From Candidatus Sulfopaludibacter sp. SbA3 (GTDB lineage Bacteria > Acidobacteriota > Vicinamibacteria > Vicinamibacterales > UBA2999), in the NCBI GenBank assembly GCA_945903265.1, contig CAMDNQ010000010.1, positions 6,372 to 70,371 of the forward strand: a stretch of DNA of 64,000 nt, given 5' to 3'. The first letter of the stretch is position 1. The number at the start of each line of letters is the position of its first letter. Shown here in pieces: positions 4,103 to 55,549 of the stretch. Made by a program: the position numbers and the translations under genes. A model generated the notes under the pieces. The model was not told where the DNA came from, ran no database searches, and saw only the letters and a program-made list of their open reading frames with translations.

Positions 4103-6301
4103 CTAGCGCGAGAGCAGGTACGTCATCTTGATGACGACCTGCTGGTTGTGGAGGTCCGGACGACCGGGCAGATTCCCCTGCAGGCCGTCATAGACGACGT
4201 ACAGGTCGCTGCCAGGCTTGTAGATGAAGTTGTAGCGCACGCTGGTGCTGACCTGGCGCGTCGACGAGTTGTACTGCGAGAGGGACCGAATCGTCATCCG
4301 CGGCGAGAGGGTGTAATCGAGCCGCACGATCCCCAGGTTCACCACGAAGGCGCCCCAGGGCAGGTTCACGTCGTTGCGCTGGACGGTGAACTCCGCGGAG
4401 GCACGGCTCGAGGCGCGGACCCCCAGTGTGAAGTCCACGTCATGCCGAGTGCCGTCGTAGAACGTCTGCGGCTTGTAATTGACGCGCTCGTACACGCGCC
4501 GCGCGGGGTTGCTGTTGTAGGTCAGCGACCATTCGTAGAACCGGTACACGCCCGCGGGGATCGTGACGTTCCGCTGGATCGCGAACGGCTGGTCCAGCAC
4601 GTCGAGCCAGCGGTTCAGGATGATGTTCAGATACGACCCGTTCTGGAACCGGGTGCCCACCATGTGATGCAGCCGCCGCGTCACGAGGCGGTTCTGCTGA
4701 TCGGTGATGTAGTCCACGTTGAACATCGGCTCCATCACTCGAATCAGGCCTCCCGGGCGCGGATTCCGCTCGAGGTGCAGCGTCGTCTTCCGGATGCCGG
4801 TCCGCGGCACGAACCCGACTTCAGCATTGAAGTTCTCCTGGATGTCGGTGAACTCGCCGTAGGAGTTCCACTTGCTGTTCTGGAACCCGGCGCGCCCGTG
4901 AAACGCCATCTGGTCCTCGCTGACACCGGGGGACGCGGTCCTGGCGACAAACGAGTGGAGGGAAAAGCTCGGCGTCGGCGCCAGGAGCAGGTCAGCCGCG
5001 ATCGTCCGGTTGAACGCGGAATCGTGCATCGCCTCCTTGTTGACCACGAGGCCGCCGATCTTGGAGCGCTCGCCGAGGTCGCGGCTGTACCGGCCGACGA
5101 CGAAGTTCTCTCCCGGGCGGCCGAACGCATCTCCCGTCTGCAGCTGCATCAGCGCGACGTTGTGGTCGCCGAGCTTTCCCGTCATGCGGGCGCCGCCGAG
5201 AAGCGGAATCTGCTGGCCGGCGGACGACAGGCCGATGCGCCGGCTGAAGAAGAGATCCGCGATGCGCTGGTTGCCCTGGTTCCCGATGGTGAACTGGCCG
5301 GAGTTCTCGAGGAAGAAATCGCGTTTCTCGGGAAAGAACAGCGCGAACCGCGTCAGGTTCACCTGCTGCTCGTCCACTTCGGCCTGCGCAAAGTCGGTGT
5401 TGAGCGTGACGTCGAGCGCGAGGCCGGAGCTGATGCCGTACTTCGCGTCGAGCCCGATGTCGGTCAGCCCGCTCGCCGAGCTGCTCGATCCGCTGCGGTC
5501 CCGGCGTCCCCCCGTGACCAGGAACGGCTTGAGCCGCAGGTCGAGGCCGCGCGTCACGTCCTCCATGCCGGACACCGTCCCCGCCATGCTGACGCGCGTG
5601 ATGGTATACGGCTTGGGAATCGGCGCCCAGTACACCTGCTCGTTCTTCCGGCGGATGTTCCGCATGAAGTTGACGCCCCACGTCTGGACGTCGGCATCGG
5701 GCGACCGCACCGTCACCATCGGGATGACGATCTCCGCTGTCCATCCGTCCGCTGTCCGCTGCGCCGCGGCGTCCCAGACGCCGTTCCAGTCGCGGTTGAT
5801 GTTCGACGCGGCCCCGCGGAGGTTGCCGCCGCCCTCCTCGAACACCTGCTGCTCCAGCTTGGCGCCGAGCGGGTTGGTCACGAACATGTACCCCGAGCGG
5901 GAGTCCCGGAAGGTGTCGAGGATGACCTGAAAGTTGTCTTCTTCGAGCATCTGCGGCGAGTCGCGCCGCATCTCGGTCGCGATCACACCGGAGGGCAGGT
6001 CGTCGAACGCGCGGACCCCGATGTAGAAGTGCTCCGCGTCGTAGAGCAGACGGACTTCGGTGCGTTCGGACGCGGGGGCGCCGTCGGTCGGCTCCTGCTG
6101 CGTGAAGCTGTCCAGGACCGCCGCGTCGCGCCAGACCGCGTCGTCGAGCACGCCGTCGACCACGGGCGGCCGCGCCGCCCGTTTCGCGTCGATGTGATGT
6201 CGTTCGGAGGCGCCGTGGACGTGCTCCTGCCCGTAGGCAGGAGCCGTCGTCAGGAGCGCGCCAAGAAGGAATGCAAGAACCGGGGTCCCGTCGCGATGCA
6301 T
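4103..6301 (-). CDS. secreted DUF5916 / carbohydrate-binding-family-9-like protein
   Basis: 732-aa ORF with a signal peptide (...LLTTAPAYGQ). An N-terminal PVVDGVLDDAVWRDA... segment resembles CBM9, and the long C-terminal part is beta-rich. The family assignment is from memory. Confidence 0.65.
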   Translation of the reverse strand: MHRDGTPVLAFLLGALLTTAPAYGQEHVHGASERHHIDAKRAARPPVVDGVLDDAVWRDAAVLDSFTQQEPTDGAPASERTEVRLLYDAEHFYIGVRAFDDLPSGVIATEMRRDSPQMLEEDNFQVILDTFRDSRSGYMFVTNPLGAKLEQQVFEEGGGNLRGAASNINRDWNGVWDAAAQRTADGWTAEIVIPMVTVRSPDADVQTWGVNFMRNIRRKNEQVYWAPIPKPYTITRVSMAGTVSGMEDVTRGLDLRLKPFLVTGGRRDRSGSSSSASGLTDIGLDAKYGISSGLALDVTLNTDFAQAEVDEQQVNLTRFALFFPEKRDFFLENSGQFTIGNQGNQRIADLFFSRRIGLSSAGQQIPLLGGARMTGKLGDHNVALMQLQTGDAFGRPGENFVVGRYSRDLGERSKIGGLVVNKEAMHDSAFNRTIAADLLLAPTPSFSLHSFVARTASPGVSEDQMAFHGRAGFQNSKWNSYGEFTDIQENFNAEVGFVPRTGIRKTTLHLERNPRPGGLIRVMEPMFNVDYITDQQNRLVTRRLHHMVGTRFQNGSYLNIILNRWLDVLDQPFAIQRNVTIPAGVYRFYEWSLTYNSNPARRVYERVNYKPQTFYDGTRHDVDFTLGVRASSRASAEFTVQRNDVNLPWGAFVVNLGIVRLDYTLSPRMTIRSLSQYNSSTRQVSTSVRYNFIYKPGSDLYVVYDGLQGNLPGRPDLHNQQVVIKMTYLLSR

Positions 6302-6371: not shown

Positions 6372-7868
6372 TCAACGCTGCGCCGTGCTCGGCGCGGGGA
6401 AATTCGCGATGCGGCGCGCCGCCCCGCTCAACTCCAGGATGTGCAGGCCGGTGTTGGCGCGATCGCCGATATAGATGTAGCCGCGGTCGTCGACATCCGC
6501 GTTGTTGCTCTGGATGGCGATCTTGCACCGCTCCGTCTGGCCCTGGCCGATGCACCGCTTGTCGGTCTTGTCGGTCGTCGCCGGGATGAAATACGCGACT
6601 TCCTTGATCTCGTAGGGATCGCGGATGTCGAGCACACGCAGGCCGGCGTTGAAGAACGTGATGAACGCGAGACGCCCGTAATAGATCGGCGTCGCGTTCT
6701 CGTGCGACGAGTGCGCGCCGAAGCGGCCGCCGCGATCGCAGAAGTTGCCGCTCGCCTCGGGGACGTTCCAGGTCTCCACGCCCATCGGGCGATTTTCCCA
6801 GGTCACGTCATACATCCGGACGAACTGCCGGTTGTCCATGCATTCCTCGTCGGTCGTCTCGCCCACGACGAGCAGGAAGTCGCGATGCGGGCCGTTGGTC
6901 AGGCGCGGGATCTGGTCGCCATGCTCGTGGCCGGCGCCCGGCTGCGGGTCGTTCATGCCCGGCTTCTGCTTCGCGAATTCCGGCATCGGAATGCCCATCA
7001 GCGGGAGCGCCGTATGCGTCCCCGATTCCGGCGCGAGGTCGATCTGCTGGACGATCGGGTATTTGAGGTTCGCCTCGGTCGGCTCCTTGGGACCATTCAG
7101 CAGCTTCTCGCGGTCGACGATCTGAATGAGACCGTTGTTGCCGGTGCCGTGCGCGAAGTACACGCGGTTCGCCTTCACACCAAGCGAGATCGGACCGTGC
7201 AGTTCGGTCGGCACCGTGCCGGTCGACCCGGGCTGCTGGCCGTGCACACCGTAGTCGCGGATGAATTTCGGCGCCGCCGGGTTGCTCAGGTCGTAGATCT
7301 TCAGCATGCGGCGGGTGCGCCATGCCTTGTCGCCCGATACCAGGTACGCGATGCCCGTGTCGCATTCCCAGAAGTTCTTATGGGTGTTGCGCAGGTCGGA
7401 CACGACGGTGGAGACCTTTGCCGGCTTCTCGGGCGTCGTGACGTCCCACACTTCGTGGCCGGAGTTGCCGTATGAGCGCAGCAGGTACACCTTGCTGCGA
7501 TCGGCGTTCGGGAGGGTCGCGCCGTTGCAGACCCGCGCCATCTGCGCGCCGCCCTGCTCGCCCGCGCCGGCTTCACCGGGGATGTGGAACAGGTACCGCG
7601 GCTGCCGCGGATTCGTCACGTCGAGCACCGACGTGCCGTTGGGTTCCTCCTGCTTCGTCAACGGGTTCATCGCCCGGCCGCCGTGGTGGCCGACGTACGC
7701 AATGTAGCGGTCCCCCTGCCGATGGATGACCGGCGCGTACGCGCTGCGCGCCTGCAGATCGTTGTGCGCAAGGAGGTCCATGTTGCTGTCCTCCTGCTTG
7801 TTCTGGGCGGCGAGCCCGGCGGTCAGGCCGATTACCACTGCCGCCACCCCGAAATGCCAACGTGTCAT
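6372..7868 (-). CDS. secreted LVIVD-repeat-like beta-propeller protein
   Basis: 498-aa ORF with a signal peptide. It has repeated D-x-G-Y-IY / GL-x-I-L-type segments, e.g. DDRGYIYIGDRANTGLHILEL. Confidence 0.55.
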   Translation of the reverse strand: MTRWHFGVAAVVIGLTAGLAAQNKQEDSNMDLLAHNDLQARSAYAPVIHRQGDRYIAYVGHHGGRAMNPLTKQEEPNGTSVLDVTNPRQPRYLFHIPGEAGAGEQGGAQMARVCNGATLPNADRSKVYLLRSYGNSGHEVWDVTTPEKPAKVSTVVSDLRNTHKNFWECDTGIAYLVSGDKAWRTRRMLKIYDLSNPAAPKFIRDYGVHGQQPGSTGTVPTELHGPISLGVKANRVYFAHGTGNNGLIQIVDREKLLNGPKEPTEANLKYPIVQQIDLAPESGTHTALPLMGIPMPEFAKQKPGMNDPQPGAGHEHGDQIPRLTNGPHRDFLLVVGETTDEECMDNRQFVRMYDVTWENRPMGVETWNVPEASGNFCDRGGRFGAHSSHENATPIYYGRLAFITFFNAGLRVLDIRDPYEIKEVAYFIPATTDKTDKRCIGQGQTERCKIAIQSNNADVDDRGYIYIGDRANTGLHILELSGAARRIANFPAPSTAQR

Positions 7869-52896: not shown

Positions 52897-52930
52897 GCCC
52901 TCGGAGGTTGCGGAGGGAACGGGACAGGAT

Positions 52931-52955
52931 CACAGGAGTAGCGGAGGCACGGAGG
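52931..52955. repeat. left arm of an imperfect inverted repeat bracketing the low-GC cassette
   Basis: CACAGGAGTAGCGGAGGCACGGAGG compared with the reverse complement of 55470-55494, CACAGGAGGAACGGAGAAACGGAGG, gives 20 of 25 identities by hand alignment. Confidence 0.5.
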
Positions 52956-53199
52956 CGCGCGGAGGCCAGAAGGCGATGATGCGCGGTCCGCCCGATGCGA
53001 GGGCAGACGCCGATGCAGCGACGTCCGCCGTGCAATTCCTGCTACGCCAACCCGCATGTCCCGCCCCGCAGCGCGCCCATCCTTCCACCCTAAGGCACAC
53101 GCCATGAGCGAGTTCTAACACTTTTGAAGGTCTCCGTCCGTGGCGCTACACTGCAGCCCTCGTAGACGCATTGAATTATCCAGATCCGCGTACTATTCG

Positions 53200-53228
53200 T
53201 TGACCGCGCTCGAGCCAGTACCAAGAAT
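53200..53228 (+). promoter_or_regulatory. candidate sigma70-like promoter (TTGACC-17 nt-AAGAAT) ending 6 nt before the ATG at 53235
   Basis: The hexamers and spacing were read directly. No Shine-Dalgarno sequence lies between them and the ATG, so the transcript would be leaderless or nearly so. Confidence 0.25.
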
Positions 53229-53234
53229 CACCAT

Positions 53235-53981
53235 ATGCCACACGAGCCAATCAACAGGAGCCTCGACATCCTCGGCGTGAAACCGATTGCTGACGCGGTT
53301 GATACGGCCACTACGGGTGTCGTCAAGGGCGCGAGCGCCTTCCTAAGCCGCATTTGCCTGCCAGCAGCGGAGGAATTTGGCTTGCTCCTGCAAGACAAGG
53401 TTAGGTTGTGGCGCGCCAGGAATGCCGCCGCGGTCGCTCAGAAGGCGGAGCGGATTCTCGGGCCGGATAACGGTCCGACTGTACAAGCACATCCGAGATT
53501 GGTTGGTGTCGTCCTGGAGGAGGGTTCGTGGATGGATGTCGATCAGGTCCAAGAGATGTGGGCCGGCCTCTTGGCATCATCTTGCAGTCCCGCTGGTGAT
53601 GACGACAGCAACCTGATGTTTGCGGATCTGCTTGCAAGACTGTCCGTTTCACAAGCGCGTCTGCTGAACCATGTCTGTTCCGTTGCTACGAAGGGTTTGA
53701 GCCCAGGCGGGCTTCTAGTGGCCGAGGGGCTTTGCCCAACCCTGCAAGAGCTGCAGGCGATCTCGGGTGTGACAGATGTGCACAGATTGGACAGAGAAAT
53801 CGACCACATGCGAAGCATGGAACTGCTGACAATCAGCAGCGGGTTCTCGCCTCGCTCGAAGAACCAAGCTGACCTGACTCCGACCACTCTTGCTATTCAA
53901 ATGTACGCACGCTGTAAGGGCCATCGGGGCGAGCCGGAGAGCTATTTCGGACTCTCGCCCGTCGCGGGCCCAGCAGCCTAG
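53235..53981 (+). CDS. Abi-alpha / DUF4393-like protein
   Basis: 248 aa. ...GVKPIADAVDTATTGVVKGASAFLSRICLPAAEEFGLLLQDKVRLWRARNA...HPRLVGVVLEEGSWMDVDQVQEMWAGLLASS... matches my memory of the Abi_alpha family pattern. The gene has lower GC than its flanks. Confidence 0.6.
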   Translation: MPHEPINRSLDILGVKPIADAVDTATTGVVKGASAFLSRICLPAAEEFGLLLQDKVRLWRARNAAAVAQKAERILGPDNGPTVQAHPRLVGVVLEEGSWMDVDQVQEMWAGLLASSCSPAGDDDSNLMFADLLARLSVSQARLLNHVCSVATKGLSPGGLLVAEGLCPTLQELQAISGVTDVHRLDREIDHMRSMELLTISSGFSPRSKNQADLTPTTLAIQMYARCKGHRGEPESYFGLSPVAGPAA

Positions 53982-54165
53982 CAAAGGAATGGAGCCGACG
54001 GGCGAGCGCGCGCGGATCATTTCATGGCGGACGCGATCGCGATCGGCACCGCACTCGCTTAACACGGTTTGCAGCCGCCGGCGGATGCCGTGACAATGAC
54101 GCGCAGGTGAAAACTTGGCTGTTAGGTGGACAGCATCACATGAAGCTCGAACGGGGGGAACTCTC

Positions 54166-54795
54166 GTGGCATTGACCGAAGCATACGTTCAGACACCAGG
54201 GGTGATCCCAGAACTGTTCCGGCAGATCCGCCAAGGCCAAGCTCCCAGTCAGTTCACGGTCCAGCACCTAAAGGACTTGGGGTACGGTTCATCGAATCAC
54301 CGGTTGTTTCTTCCGTTGCTGAAGGCGCTGGGGTTTCTGACAGCAGATGGCAAGCCCACTGCCCGCTACTCAGAGTACCGTGACGAAACTCAGTCACGAC
54401 GAGTGCTGGCAGATGCCCTCAAGCAAGCCTATGCCGACCTCTTCGTACTTCGGTCCAAGCCGGCCGACGCCGACCGGGCGCTCTTCGAGGGCAAGTTCAA
54501 GAGCACCCACAACACCAGCGATCGAATGGCCAAGTTGATGGCCTCTACTTTCTTCGCGCTGTTGCCACTCGCGGATCTCGACGCGAGTCCAAAACAGGCT
54601 AGCGCAGAAGAGCGGAAGACGGACGTCGTCGGAAAGGAAGACGCCGGCAAGGGAGATGAACAAGGGCAGCGCGGAACTGGTCGACGGGCGGGGACGAGCT
54701 TGCACTACAACATCCAGATCCACCTTCCGGCGACGAAAGATATCGAGGTCTACAACTCGATTTTCAAGTCTCTTCGGGAGCATCTCCTTGAGTAG
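54166..54795 (+). CDS. DUF5343-like protein
   Basis: The GTG at 54166 is preceded by GGGGGG. ...YVQTPGVIPELFRQIRQGQAPSQFTVQHLKDLGYGSSNHRLFLPLLKALGFLTADGKPTARYSEYR... matches the DUF5343 pattern from memory. The C-terminal tail is LHYNIQIHLPATKDIEVYNSIFKSLREHL. The track start at 54115 is also possible. Confidence 0.6.
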   Translation: MALTEAYVQTPGVIPELFRQIRQGQAPSQFTVQHLKDLGYGSSNHRLFLPLLKALGFLTADGKPTARYSEYRDETQSRRVLADALKQAYADLFVLRSKPADADRALFEGKFKSTHNTSDRMAKLMASTFFALLPLADLDASPKQASAEERKTDVVGKEDAGKGDEQGQRGTGRRAGTSLHYNIQIHLPATKDIEVYNSIFKSLREHLLE

Positions 54796-55375
54796 TGACC
54801 TGAAGGACTTCAGAGACTTTCTATTTCGTGGCCTGATGCTGGAGTCGGAGGCGGGCAGCTTTCAGGCTGCTGGTATTCAGGTCGGCGCCGATATAGGCCA
54901 GGCCGAGGAGCGTCTTCTTTCAGACGCCATCGCACCCTTCGGCGTGGTGCTTCGCAACAGGGCCATTGAGATGGGGCGCCTTTACGTGGTTCTTCATTGC
55001 TTTGAGAACTCGATCCGTACTTTTATCCGTGAAACCCTTGAGGAAAAAGACGGGCCGGCCTGGGCGGAGAAGCTGCCAGCCAAGGTAAAGAAGTACGCCG
55101 AGGACCGTCAGAAGGAGTCCATCGAGGATTCGTGGCTCGAAGGGGAGAAGGGTGATCTGCTCGGCTACGTCGACTTCGCCCACTTGGCGTCCATCATCAT
55201 TGAAAAGTGGGCTCACTTTGAGGACATCGTTCCATCGCAGCATTGGCTCAAGCAGCGAATGGAAGAGATGGAAAAGGCAAGGCACTTCATCGCTCACAAT
55301 CGGATGCTCCTGCCGACAGAGTTCCAACGCCTTTACATGTACATCGCCGATTGGAATCGCATCATCGGGTTGTGA
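54788..55375 (+). CDS. Swt1-like HEPN-domain protein (putative RNase)
   Basis: The frame of track ORF 54656..55375 was used. The TTG at 54788 overlaps the upstream stop by 8 nt; the alternative is the ATG at about 54836. ...CFENSIRTFIRETLEEKDGPAWAEKLP...LLGYVDFAHLASIIIEKWAHFED...ARHFIAHNRML contains an Rx4H HEPN motif (RHFIAH). Confidence 0.6.
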   Translation: MSSDLKDFRDFLFRGLMLESEAGSFQAAGIQVGADIGQAEERLLSDAIAPFGVVLRNRAIEMGRLYVVLHCFENSIRTFIRETLEEKDGPAWAEKLPAKVKKYAEDRQKESIEDSWLEGEKGDLLGYVDFAHLASIIIEKWAHFEDIVPSQHWLKQRMEEMEKARHFIAHNRMLLPTEFQRLYMYIADWNRIIGL

Positions 55376-55469
55376 AGCCGCCTAACCACGGCTGCAGCCG
55401 TTGGCGGTTCTCCTAACGCGAAGGCGGGCGTTGCCGGCCAAGATGTAGTTGCCGTCGCGATCCGTTCGT

Positions 55470-55494
55470 CCTCCGTTTCTCCGTTCCTCCTGTG
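55470..55494. repeat. right arm of the inverted repeat bracketing the low-GC cassette
   Basis: See the left arm at 52931-52955. Confidence 0.5.
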
Positions 55495-55549
55495 AAACCG
55501 TTGCCTCTGCGTCCTCCGCCACCGGAGTCCTCCTGTTACCATTAACTGC

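Follow-up and report, generated by a model that had tools for sequence, protein, structure and literature searches.

Many immune systems, among them Cas13, Csm6, RNase L and several abortive infection (Abi) systems, act through HEPN RNases, and how each of these nucleases is silenced is the key mechanistic question. A pair of overlapping genes in a 64,000-nucleotide (nt) stretch of Candidatus Sulfopaludibacter sp. SbA3 (contig CAMDNQ010000010.1, positions 6,372 to 70,371; hereafter the window) raises this question for a Swt1-type HEPN protein (B), which is encoded directly downstream of, and starts within, a gene for a DUF5343 protein (A). A first-pass annotation of this DNA had described the two as probably co-translated and had pointed to an intact Rx4H motif in the HEPN protein. 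Here we report that the pair is, judged by its sequence, a clear member of the catalogued candidate system PDC-M34. We propose, with a probability of roughly 55%, that it is a toxin–antitoxin (TA)-like or abortive-infection module of the PDC-M34 type in which A holds the RNase B in check.

Both proteins match named families. A matches the Pfam family DUF5343 (PF17278) over residues 7–141 (E = 2.2e-41; 141.9 bits, cut-off 27) and the PADLOC profile PDLC04589 almost entirely (E = 1.8e-74; residues 1–207 on profile positions 1–207 of 208). B matches Pfam HEPN_Swt1 (PF18731; E = 7.7e-13, 49.2 bits against a curated cut-off of 27.5), with HEPN_SAV2148 as a second, weaker Pfam match, and the PADLOC profile PDLC04592 (M34B) over its full length (E = 8.9e-64). 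The two genes are adjacent and co-directional and match both component profiles of the PADLOC-DB candidate PDC-M34 end to end; there is no structural difference between that candidate and the window copy, which is a member of it, and the kind of system is itself not new. As a PDC entry, PDC-M34 is a computational candidate only. PHROGs and NCBIfam contained no family for A or B, and the sole literature match, a 2013 survey of HEPN domains (PMC3710099), covers the Abi2/Swt1 clade and not the DUF5343 partner. What the present analysis adds is a conserved TTG-overlap junction, a three-part anatomy of A with a highly conserved tail, unusually deep purifying selection, the absence of a conserved operator upstream of A and a second partner family of DUF5343. 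For the window, two ‘hypothetical’ or ‘DUF’ genes become a defined candidate defence or TA cassette.

Is the pairing of these genes more than chance? When 185,579 genomes, each from a different species, were scanned, at least 145 proved to encode a relative of B, the best 80 of them at 65–81% identity. These 80 come from Acidobacteriota, several proteobacterial classes, Bacteroidota, Planctomycetota, Chloroflexota, Verrucomicrobiota, Nitrospinota, Omnitrophota, Zixibacteria and others; the spread covers more than 10 phyla and is sporadic and phylogenetically scattered. Their loci underlie the adjacency and junction statistics given here, and residue conservation in B was counted over 78 sequences, namely those of 77 other species genomes and the window. 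Directly upstream of the HEPN gene, 79 of the 80 loci have a DUF5343 gene, and the exception is truncated by a contig end. The adjacency of the two families in other genomes, which the first-pass annotation had named as a check, therefore holds in all 79 testable loci. Another of its checks, conservation of the arginine and histidine in homologues, gave an equally clear answer: all 78 sequences, drawn from many phyla, have the same R165 and H170 in B. Because the dyad never varies and the partner gene is always adjacent, comparative sequence evidence confirms the region as a real two-gene cassette and not a chance arrangement, and by its genomic association A is the obligate partner of B. Synonymous divergence (dS) is saturated, with a nonsynonymous divergence (dN) of 0.12–0.27 for B and 0.29–0.49 for A. 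Saturated dS at such low dN indicates that the similarity across phyla reflects strong, long-term purifying selection on both proteins and not recent spread.

B carries the features of an active HEPN RNase. Active members of the superfamily have an Rx4–6H motif with a polar residue after the arginine where helix 3 ends, as well as an upstream Ex3[KR] motif (PMC3710099); B has all of them, including, in its predicted structure, the placement at the end of helix 3. The sequence EKARHFIAHNRML is found in B, with R165 at 55280–55282 and H170 at 55295–55297, and directly after R165, 60 of the 78 sequences have N and the other 18 have H. The peptide ENSIRTFIRE, which had been singled out as a preceding helix, begins at 55004 and contains the Ex3R motif, whose E73, N74 and R77 never vary; together with the HEPN_Swt1 match above the cut-off and the located R165 and H170, this bears out the original description of a HEPN gene with an intact Rx4H motif. 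In an AlphaFold2 (AF2) model of B, with a mean predicted local distance difference test score (pLDDT) of 75.7, helices span residues 36–48 and 53–88, followed by inserted helices within 92–144 and by helices 151–169 and 176–193, a predicted order that fits the canonical HEPN layout H1–H2–insert–H3(Rx4H)–H4. B is a Swt1-clade HEPN protein, and we predict that it acts as a metal-independent endoribonuclease through R165 and H170, with N/H166 and E73/R77 assisting. Residues 4–36 of the model have a pLDDT below 50, and the strongly conserved N-terminal segment of B to which they belong is a candidate partner-binding segment.

The junction between the two genes is conserved too. In the window, the open reading frame (ORF) of B spans 54656–55375 without interruption through A’s stop, with an alternative in-frame ATG at 54656. 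The earlier observation that the HEPN frame is open across A’s TAG, with a TTG at 54788, is thus borne out, and the 8-nt overlap, with B’s TTG inside the end of A, can be read directly from the window sequence. Three lines of evidence indicate that this TTG is B’s correct start and that the extension to the ATG at 54656 is not real. The frame is closed upstream in relatives: in 59 of 77 related loci the overlapping start comes no more than five sense codons after the preceding in-frame stop, and it is the earliest start codon of the ORF in 68 of the 77 compared. Public gene calls give products of 209 and 195 amino acids (aa) with the same 8-nt overlap, and the PADLOC profile alignment places B residues 3–194 on profile positions 3–191 of 192. 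A protein identical to B (P0001; 100% identity) is likewise 195 aa long, which is exactly the length of most B relatives among the 1999 database matches listed.

Across the related loci, the start of B overlaps the stop of A in 77 of 79 cases (53 overlaps of 8 nt, 20 of 11 nt and 3 of 4 nt), and the start codon is TTG in 71 of 79. This conserved overlapping start supports translational coupling of A and B and, with it, the co-translation proposed at first pass. A Shine–Dalgarno (SD)-like element lies within 15 nt 5′ of the B start in 51 of 77 related loci, mostly as an AAGGAG formed by Lys–Glu codons of A’s tail. The loci without one are mostly from Bacteroidota, a phylum that makes little use of SD sequences. 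Because B can be translated only from a weak TTG in the last codons of A, behind an SD element formed by A’s Lys–Glu codons, its synthesis is tied to that of A and probably runs at a lower level. RNAalifold predicted no base pairs at the junction in related loci, and the folding z-score of the window sequence was −1.1. A frameshift fusion of A and B was considered and is ruled out, because the B frame is closed shortly before its start in most loci.

What, then, could A contribute? Its sequence divides into three parts: a basic N-domain, a disordered linker and a tail (Table 1). Homologues of A start with MALT(D/E)AYVQ. The AF2 model of the N-domain has three helices (residues 11–23, 32–37 and 43–55), a short hairpin (bridge residues 58 and 64) that makes this part winged-helix-like, and another five helices, the last of them ending by residue 135. 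The linker is 28–43 residues long among homologues, and pLDDT falls below 50 for residues 143–180. The tail, LHYNIQIHLPATKDIEVYNAIFKSLKEHLLE, comprises 32 residues predicted to form a strand and an amphipathic helix, with column conservation of 0.98, 0.91 and 0.82 in its successive 10-residue blocks. The conserved-looking tail NIQIHLPATKDIEVYNSIFKSLREHL that the first-pass annotation had noticed at the end of A is indeed present and turns out to be the best-conserved segment of the protein. As third codon positions vary in the DNA alignment, the conservation of junction and tail acts at the protein level. Relatives of A fall into 1764 clusters at 50% identity (E up to 0.001), and both the tail and the three-part architecture persist in relatives of only about 30% identity. 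Foldseek searches of the PDB and BFVD with the AF2 model of A returned nothing with E < 0.5, sequence profile searches of the PDB gave no meaningful match for A, and a Pfam scan of 30 diverse relatives of A found only DUF5343 and no nucleotidyltransferase (NTase) family.

Table 1. Features of the A–B pair and its upstream neighbour, in window coordinates.
Feature	Position	Strand	Remarks
Gene A: DUF5343 protein / PDC-M34A, 209 aa	54166..54795	+	GTG start, TAG stop at 54793–54795
A N-domain, residues 1–142; basic, helical, winged-helix-like start	54166..54591	+	AF2 pLDDT 85–93
A linker, residues 143–177; disordered, P/E/K-rich	54592..54696	+	Column conservation 0.17–0.40
A C-terminal tail, residues 178–209, SLHYNIQIHLPATKDIEVYNSIFKSLREHLLE	54697..54792	+	Best-conserved part of A
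Shine–Dalgarno-like GGGAG in A’s last codons	54776..54780	+	7 nt 5′ of B’s TTG, read from sequence
Gene B: Swt1-type HEPN protein / PDC-M34B, 195 aa	54788..55375	+	TTG start at 54788–54790, TGA stop at 55373–55375
B N-terminal 50 residues; strongly conserved, acidic	54788..54937	+	Invariant E19, F25, G29, G33; median isoelectric point (pI) 4.6
E73-N74-x2-R77 (Ex3R) motif in long helix 53–88	55004..55018	+	E73, N74, R77 invariant, 78/78
R165-x4-H170 (RHFIAH), predicted RNase catalytic dyad	55280..55297	+	Invariant, 78/78; end of helix 151–169
Abi_alpha gene, 248 aa; shares the low-GC stretch	53235..53981	+	Pfam PF14337, E = 2.4e-13

The module that we favour would work as follows. A would hold B inactive, most likely through contact between A’s tail and the conserved N-terminal segment of B, which is disordered in the isolated model; both elements are conserved yet unstructured in isolation, which makes them the natural candidates for an interface. 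The disordered linker of A is probably protease-sensitive and would be a natural site of proteolytic turnover. If A were lost or displaced, for example when a phage shuts off host expression or when the N-domain meets a ligand, B would be freed to cleave RNA, and growth would stop or the infection would abort. We infer in this scheme the RNase activity and toxicity of B, its neutralization by A, the contact of tail and N terminus, the trigger and the anti-phage role. The pair is widespread in environmental bacteria and compact (about 1.2 kb), and it offers obvious residues to mutate in R165, H170 and the 32-residue tail; its interest would be greater still should the tail turn out to control HEPN nucleases in a new way.

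The DUF5343 protein appears to work with at least two families of Rx4H proteins. A distant DUF5343 subfamily from metagenome loci (L091–L170) matches the PDC-M34A profile with E = 1.1e-52, and in all 66 complete metagenomic loci the next gene, at a spacing of −17 to +12 nt, encodes a protein of roughly 177 aa. Close to its C terminus this protein carries an invariant RN(E/D)C(A/G)H motif (for example, RNECAH), and it also has an LRCxEN helix. The B profile, a local copy of Pfam-A and PADLOC all left the family unmatched, single members have sub-threshold matches to three different HEPN families, and the protein database labels it PF27235.1 (2042 relatives). Homology to B was tried by profile–profile comparison and is not significant (hhalign probability 0.7). 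The family is probably a divergent HEPN family, one that would be missed as PDC-M34B. A tentative and rather doubtful extension is that DUF5343 is a portable control module, in which a winged-helix-like sensor of basic charge, with a flexible tether and a highly conserved strand–helix tail, would govern two or more Rx4H RNase families, among them the Swt1-type HEPN proteins of the window kind and the 177-aa family, in a mode undescribed for HEPN systems. The tail might fold onto the N terminus of the RNase, or A might recruit substrate for an inert acidic RNase; either mode, if true, would be a new class of HEPN toxin–partner system. With such natural variants that have a different RNase partner, and with its small size, the cassette is an easy system for finding a new mode of HEPN nuclease control.

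Several results count against a TA-like or abortive-infection module. Full-text literature searches on the system and family names found no papers that name or test the pair. A Foldseek search of the PDB with the AF2 model of B returned nothing with E < 1 (4nqf, the top HEPN entry, came 36th with E = 5.5) and a sequence profile search of the PDB with B found no detectable relative, so the support for the HEPN fold comes only from profile and topology; for the four-helix fold that the first-pass annotation had proposed to verify, the helix order of the model fits, and there is no significant structural match. The pair was not found in 50,697 phage records or in PHROGs, and 72,556 plasmid records held one distant B homologue lacking a DUF5343 partner and nothing else. 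Many copies lie in plain metabolic surroundings and not in defence islands, and for genes of defence or TA systems the 65–81% identity across phyla is exceptionally strong conservation. The tail of A is also conserved where the partner is the 177-aa family, so it might bind something besides B. In the 120–160 nt upstream of A, compared over 71 loci, no palindrome or shared dyad rose above shuffle level in a crude test that would miss divergent operators; with no conserved operator, a classical promoter-repressing antitoxin is not supported. The charge complementarity between the N-domain of A (median pI 9.1 in 72 homologues) and B (pI 5.5) fits a nucleic-acid-binding activator equally well.

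Such an activator is the core of an alternative that we consider unlikely, a heteromeric RNase in which the basic N-domain of A binds nucleic acid or a phage component and the linker and tail deliver or switch on B. B would be inert without A, and A would be a sensor or adaptor, not an antitoxin. This would account for the opposite charges of the N-domain and of B, down to its acidic N terminus, and for the lack of a conserved autoregulatory operator; the very strong conservation of both proteins would suggest a conserved cellular or nucleic-acid ligand, one A architecture serves two Rx4H partner families, and an intact B beside a disrupted A, as in a locus described below, is easily explained if B alone is harmless. 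Yet partner first, RNase second and a weak coupled start is the usual TA arrangement for keeping a toxin sub-stoichiometric, and the tail-coding part is kept in both cases in which an insertion sequence (IS) disrupts A. Less probable again is a purely selfish addiction cassette, maintained by post-segregational killing and horizontal transfer and without an anti-phage role. The pair does consist of two small, co-transcribed and overlapping genes, is sporadic across phyla and horizontally spread, has other TA pairs, IS elements and integrases among its neighbours and often stands outside recognisable defence islands. Against this, it is almost absent from plasmids, where addiction modules pay off, PADLOC curators list it as a defence candidate, its window copy sits beside an Abi_alpha gene, and the strong purifying selection that has acted across deep divergence points to a function that benefits the host. 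That the pair is a housekeeping RNA-processing enzyme with an accessory subunit seems very improbable: its very high sequence conservation and some metabolic neighbourhoods would suit that role, but it occurs in few genomes of the species scan, is scattered phylogenetically, lies in a low-GC insert in this window and has neighbourhoods that differ between genomes, with no conservation.

Among the closest known systems is HEPN–MNT (HepT/MntA; type VII TA; described in part in PMC3710099), which comprises small, mobile two-gene cassettes in which, as in the window pair, the gene for a HEPN Rx4H RNase lies downstream of that for its controlling partner and overlaps it. Its partner is a minimal nucleotidyltransferase (MNT), whereas A is a DUF5343 protein with no NTase match, so AMPylation control of B is not expected; the HEPN domain of the window also belongs to the Abi2/Swt1 clade and not to the MNT-associated clade. 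In RnlA–RnlB and LsoA–LsoB, a HEPN RNase toxin is neutralized by direct binding of a small protein, with a link to anti-phage abortive infection, much as we propose for A and B. There, however, the toxin gene comes first, the toxins are much larger and multidomain, and neither component is related in sequence to A or B. The RNase LS family is listed among HEPN proteins, and Abi2 is placed as the sister group of Swt1-type HEPN domains (PMC3710099).

PrrC–EcoprrI, AbiD/AbiF and Abi2 offer the more general parallel of latent HEPN RNases of conflict systems, silenced by a partner protein until phage infection. Unlike the window pair, PrrC has an ATPase domain and is masked by a restriction–modification enzyme, AbiD and AbiF are each encoded by a lone gene, and none of these systems is known to have a DUF5343 partner. 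AbiEi-type antitoxins, finally, have an N-terminal winged helix and a C-terminal neutralizing part and repress their own promoter through conserved repeats. This layout, a winged-helix-like N-domain joined to a toxin-facing C-terminal part, is comparable to that of A, but there is no sequence or significant structural match between the two, no conserved operator precedes A, and the AbiE toxin is a nucleotidyltransferase, whereas B is a HEPN protein.

In the window, the pair differs from its surroundings in base composition. GC content is 0.55–0.60 over approximately 53000–55500, against 0.63–0.71 around it, and the same stretch holds the Abi_alpha gene, 185 nt upstream of the pair. The flanks are housekeeping in character, with a phosphotransferase-like gene upstream and genes for an AP_endonuc_2 TIM-barrel protein, AsnRS, RimO, RimP and NusA downstream. 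Abi_alpha and the pair (53000–55500) are probably a small, acquired insert of conflict genes; as a third component of the system Abi_alpha is ruled out, because a homologue lies beside the pair in none of the 80 other loci. An imperfect 26-nt inverted repeat (22 of 26 bases; 52930–52955 and 55470–55495) brackets the low-GC insert in the manner of mobile-element ends, but as a boundary it is near chance, with the same score in 2 of 40 shuffles. A 29-nt direct repeat (72% identical), just 5′ of A (54056–54084) and just 3′ of B (55379–55407), is at chance level, equalled in 4 of 40 shuffles. Elsewhere the copies are stand-alone cassettes, some of which adjoin genes for MazE/PIN, HicB, Gp49/HTH, HigBA-like proteins, HipA, Tae4 or NucS, as well as IS elements and integrases.

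Some loci depart from the standard form. In an Aridibacter metagenome-assembled genome (OZ244151.1; L077, 4007–6582), an IS3-type element (orfA and orfB at 4581–5860) sits in the DUF5343 linker, leaving a separate tail ORF (5784–6005) and an intact HEPN gene. In the protein P0372, a DDE_5 transposase fragment is fused to DUF5343 residues 99–209, again with the tail retained. Tail retention in these two cases fits the tail as an indispensable part, although two cases are anecdotal. Directly 3′ of the Aridibacter pair, an ORF of 263 aa (6698–7489, + strand) contains RRRNQIVH, an Rx4H-type motif that suggests a second HEPN-like gene beside the pair. The sole plasmid match, on the Sphaerospermopsis plasmid AP018315.1 (L090, 4057–5435), encodes a 249-aa Swt1-type HEPN protein (PDC-M34B profiles, E = 2.6e-41) behind a gene for a 174-aa protein that is not DUF5343 and has no matches; it may be a different partner.

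Other irregularities concern A. Two same-lineage assemblies that encode an identical HEPN protein both break within or just before the DUF5343 gene (L083, 1–430; L084, 1–310), and an 89-aa DUF5343 fragment (P0244) serves as a cluster representative; differences between strains or trouble in assembling the linker might explain the breaks. On a 1.56-Mb contig (L174, 5365–6008), DUF5343 is split into 64 aa and 133 aa before the same HEPN protein that follows an intact, 213-aa DUF5343 on a short contig of the Logan assembly of SRR5580868 (L175, 1247–1888), and this split is probably an assembly or sequencing indel and not a pseudogene.

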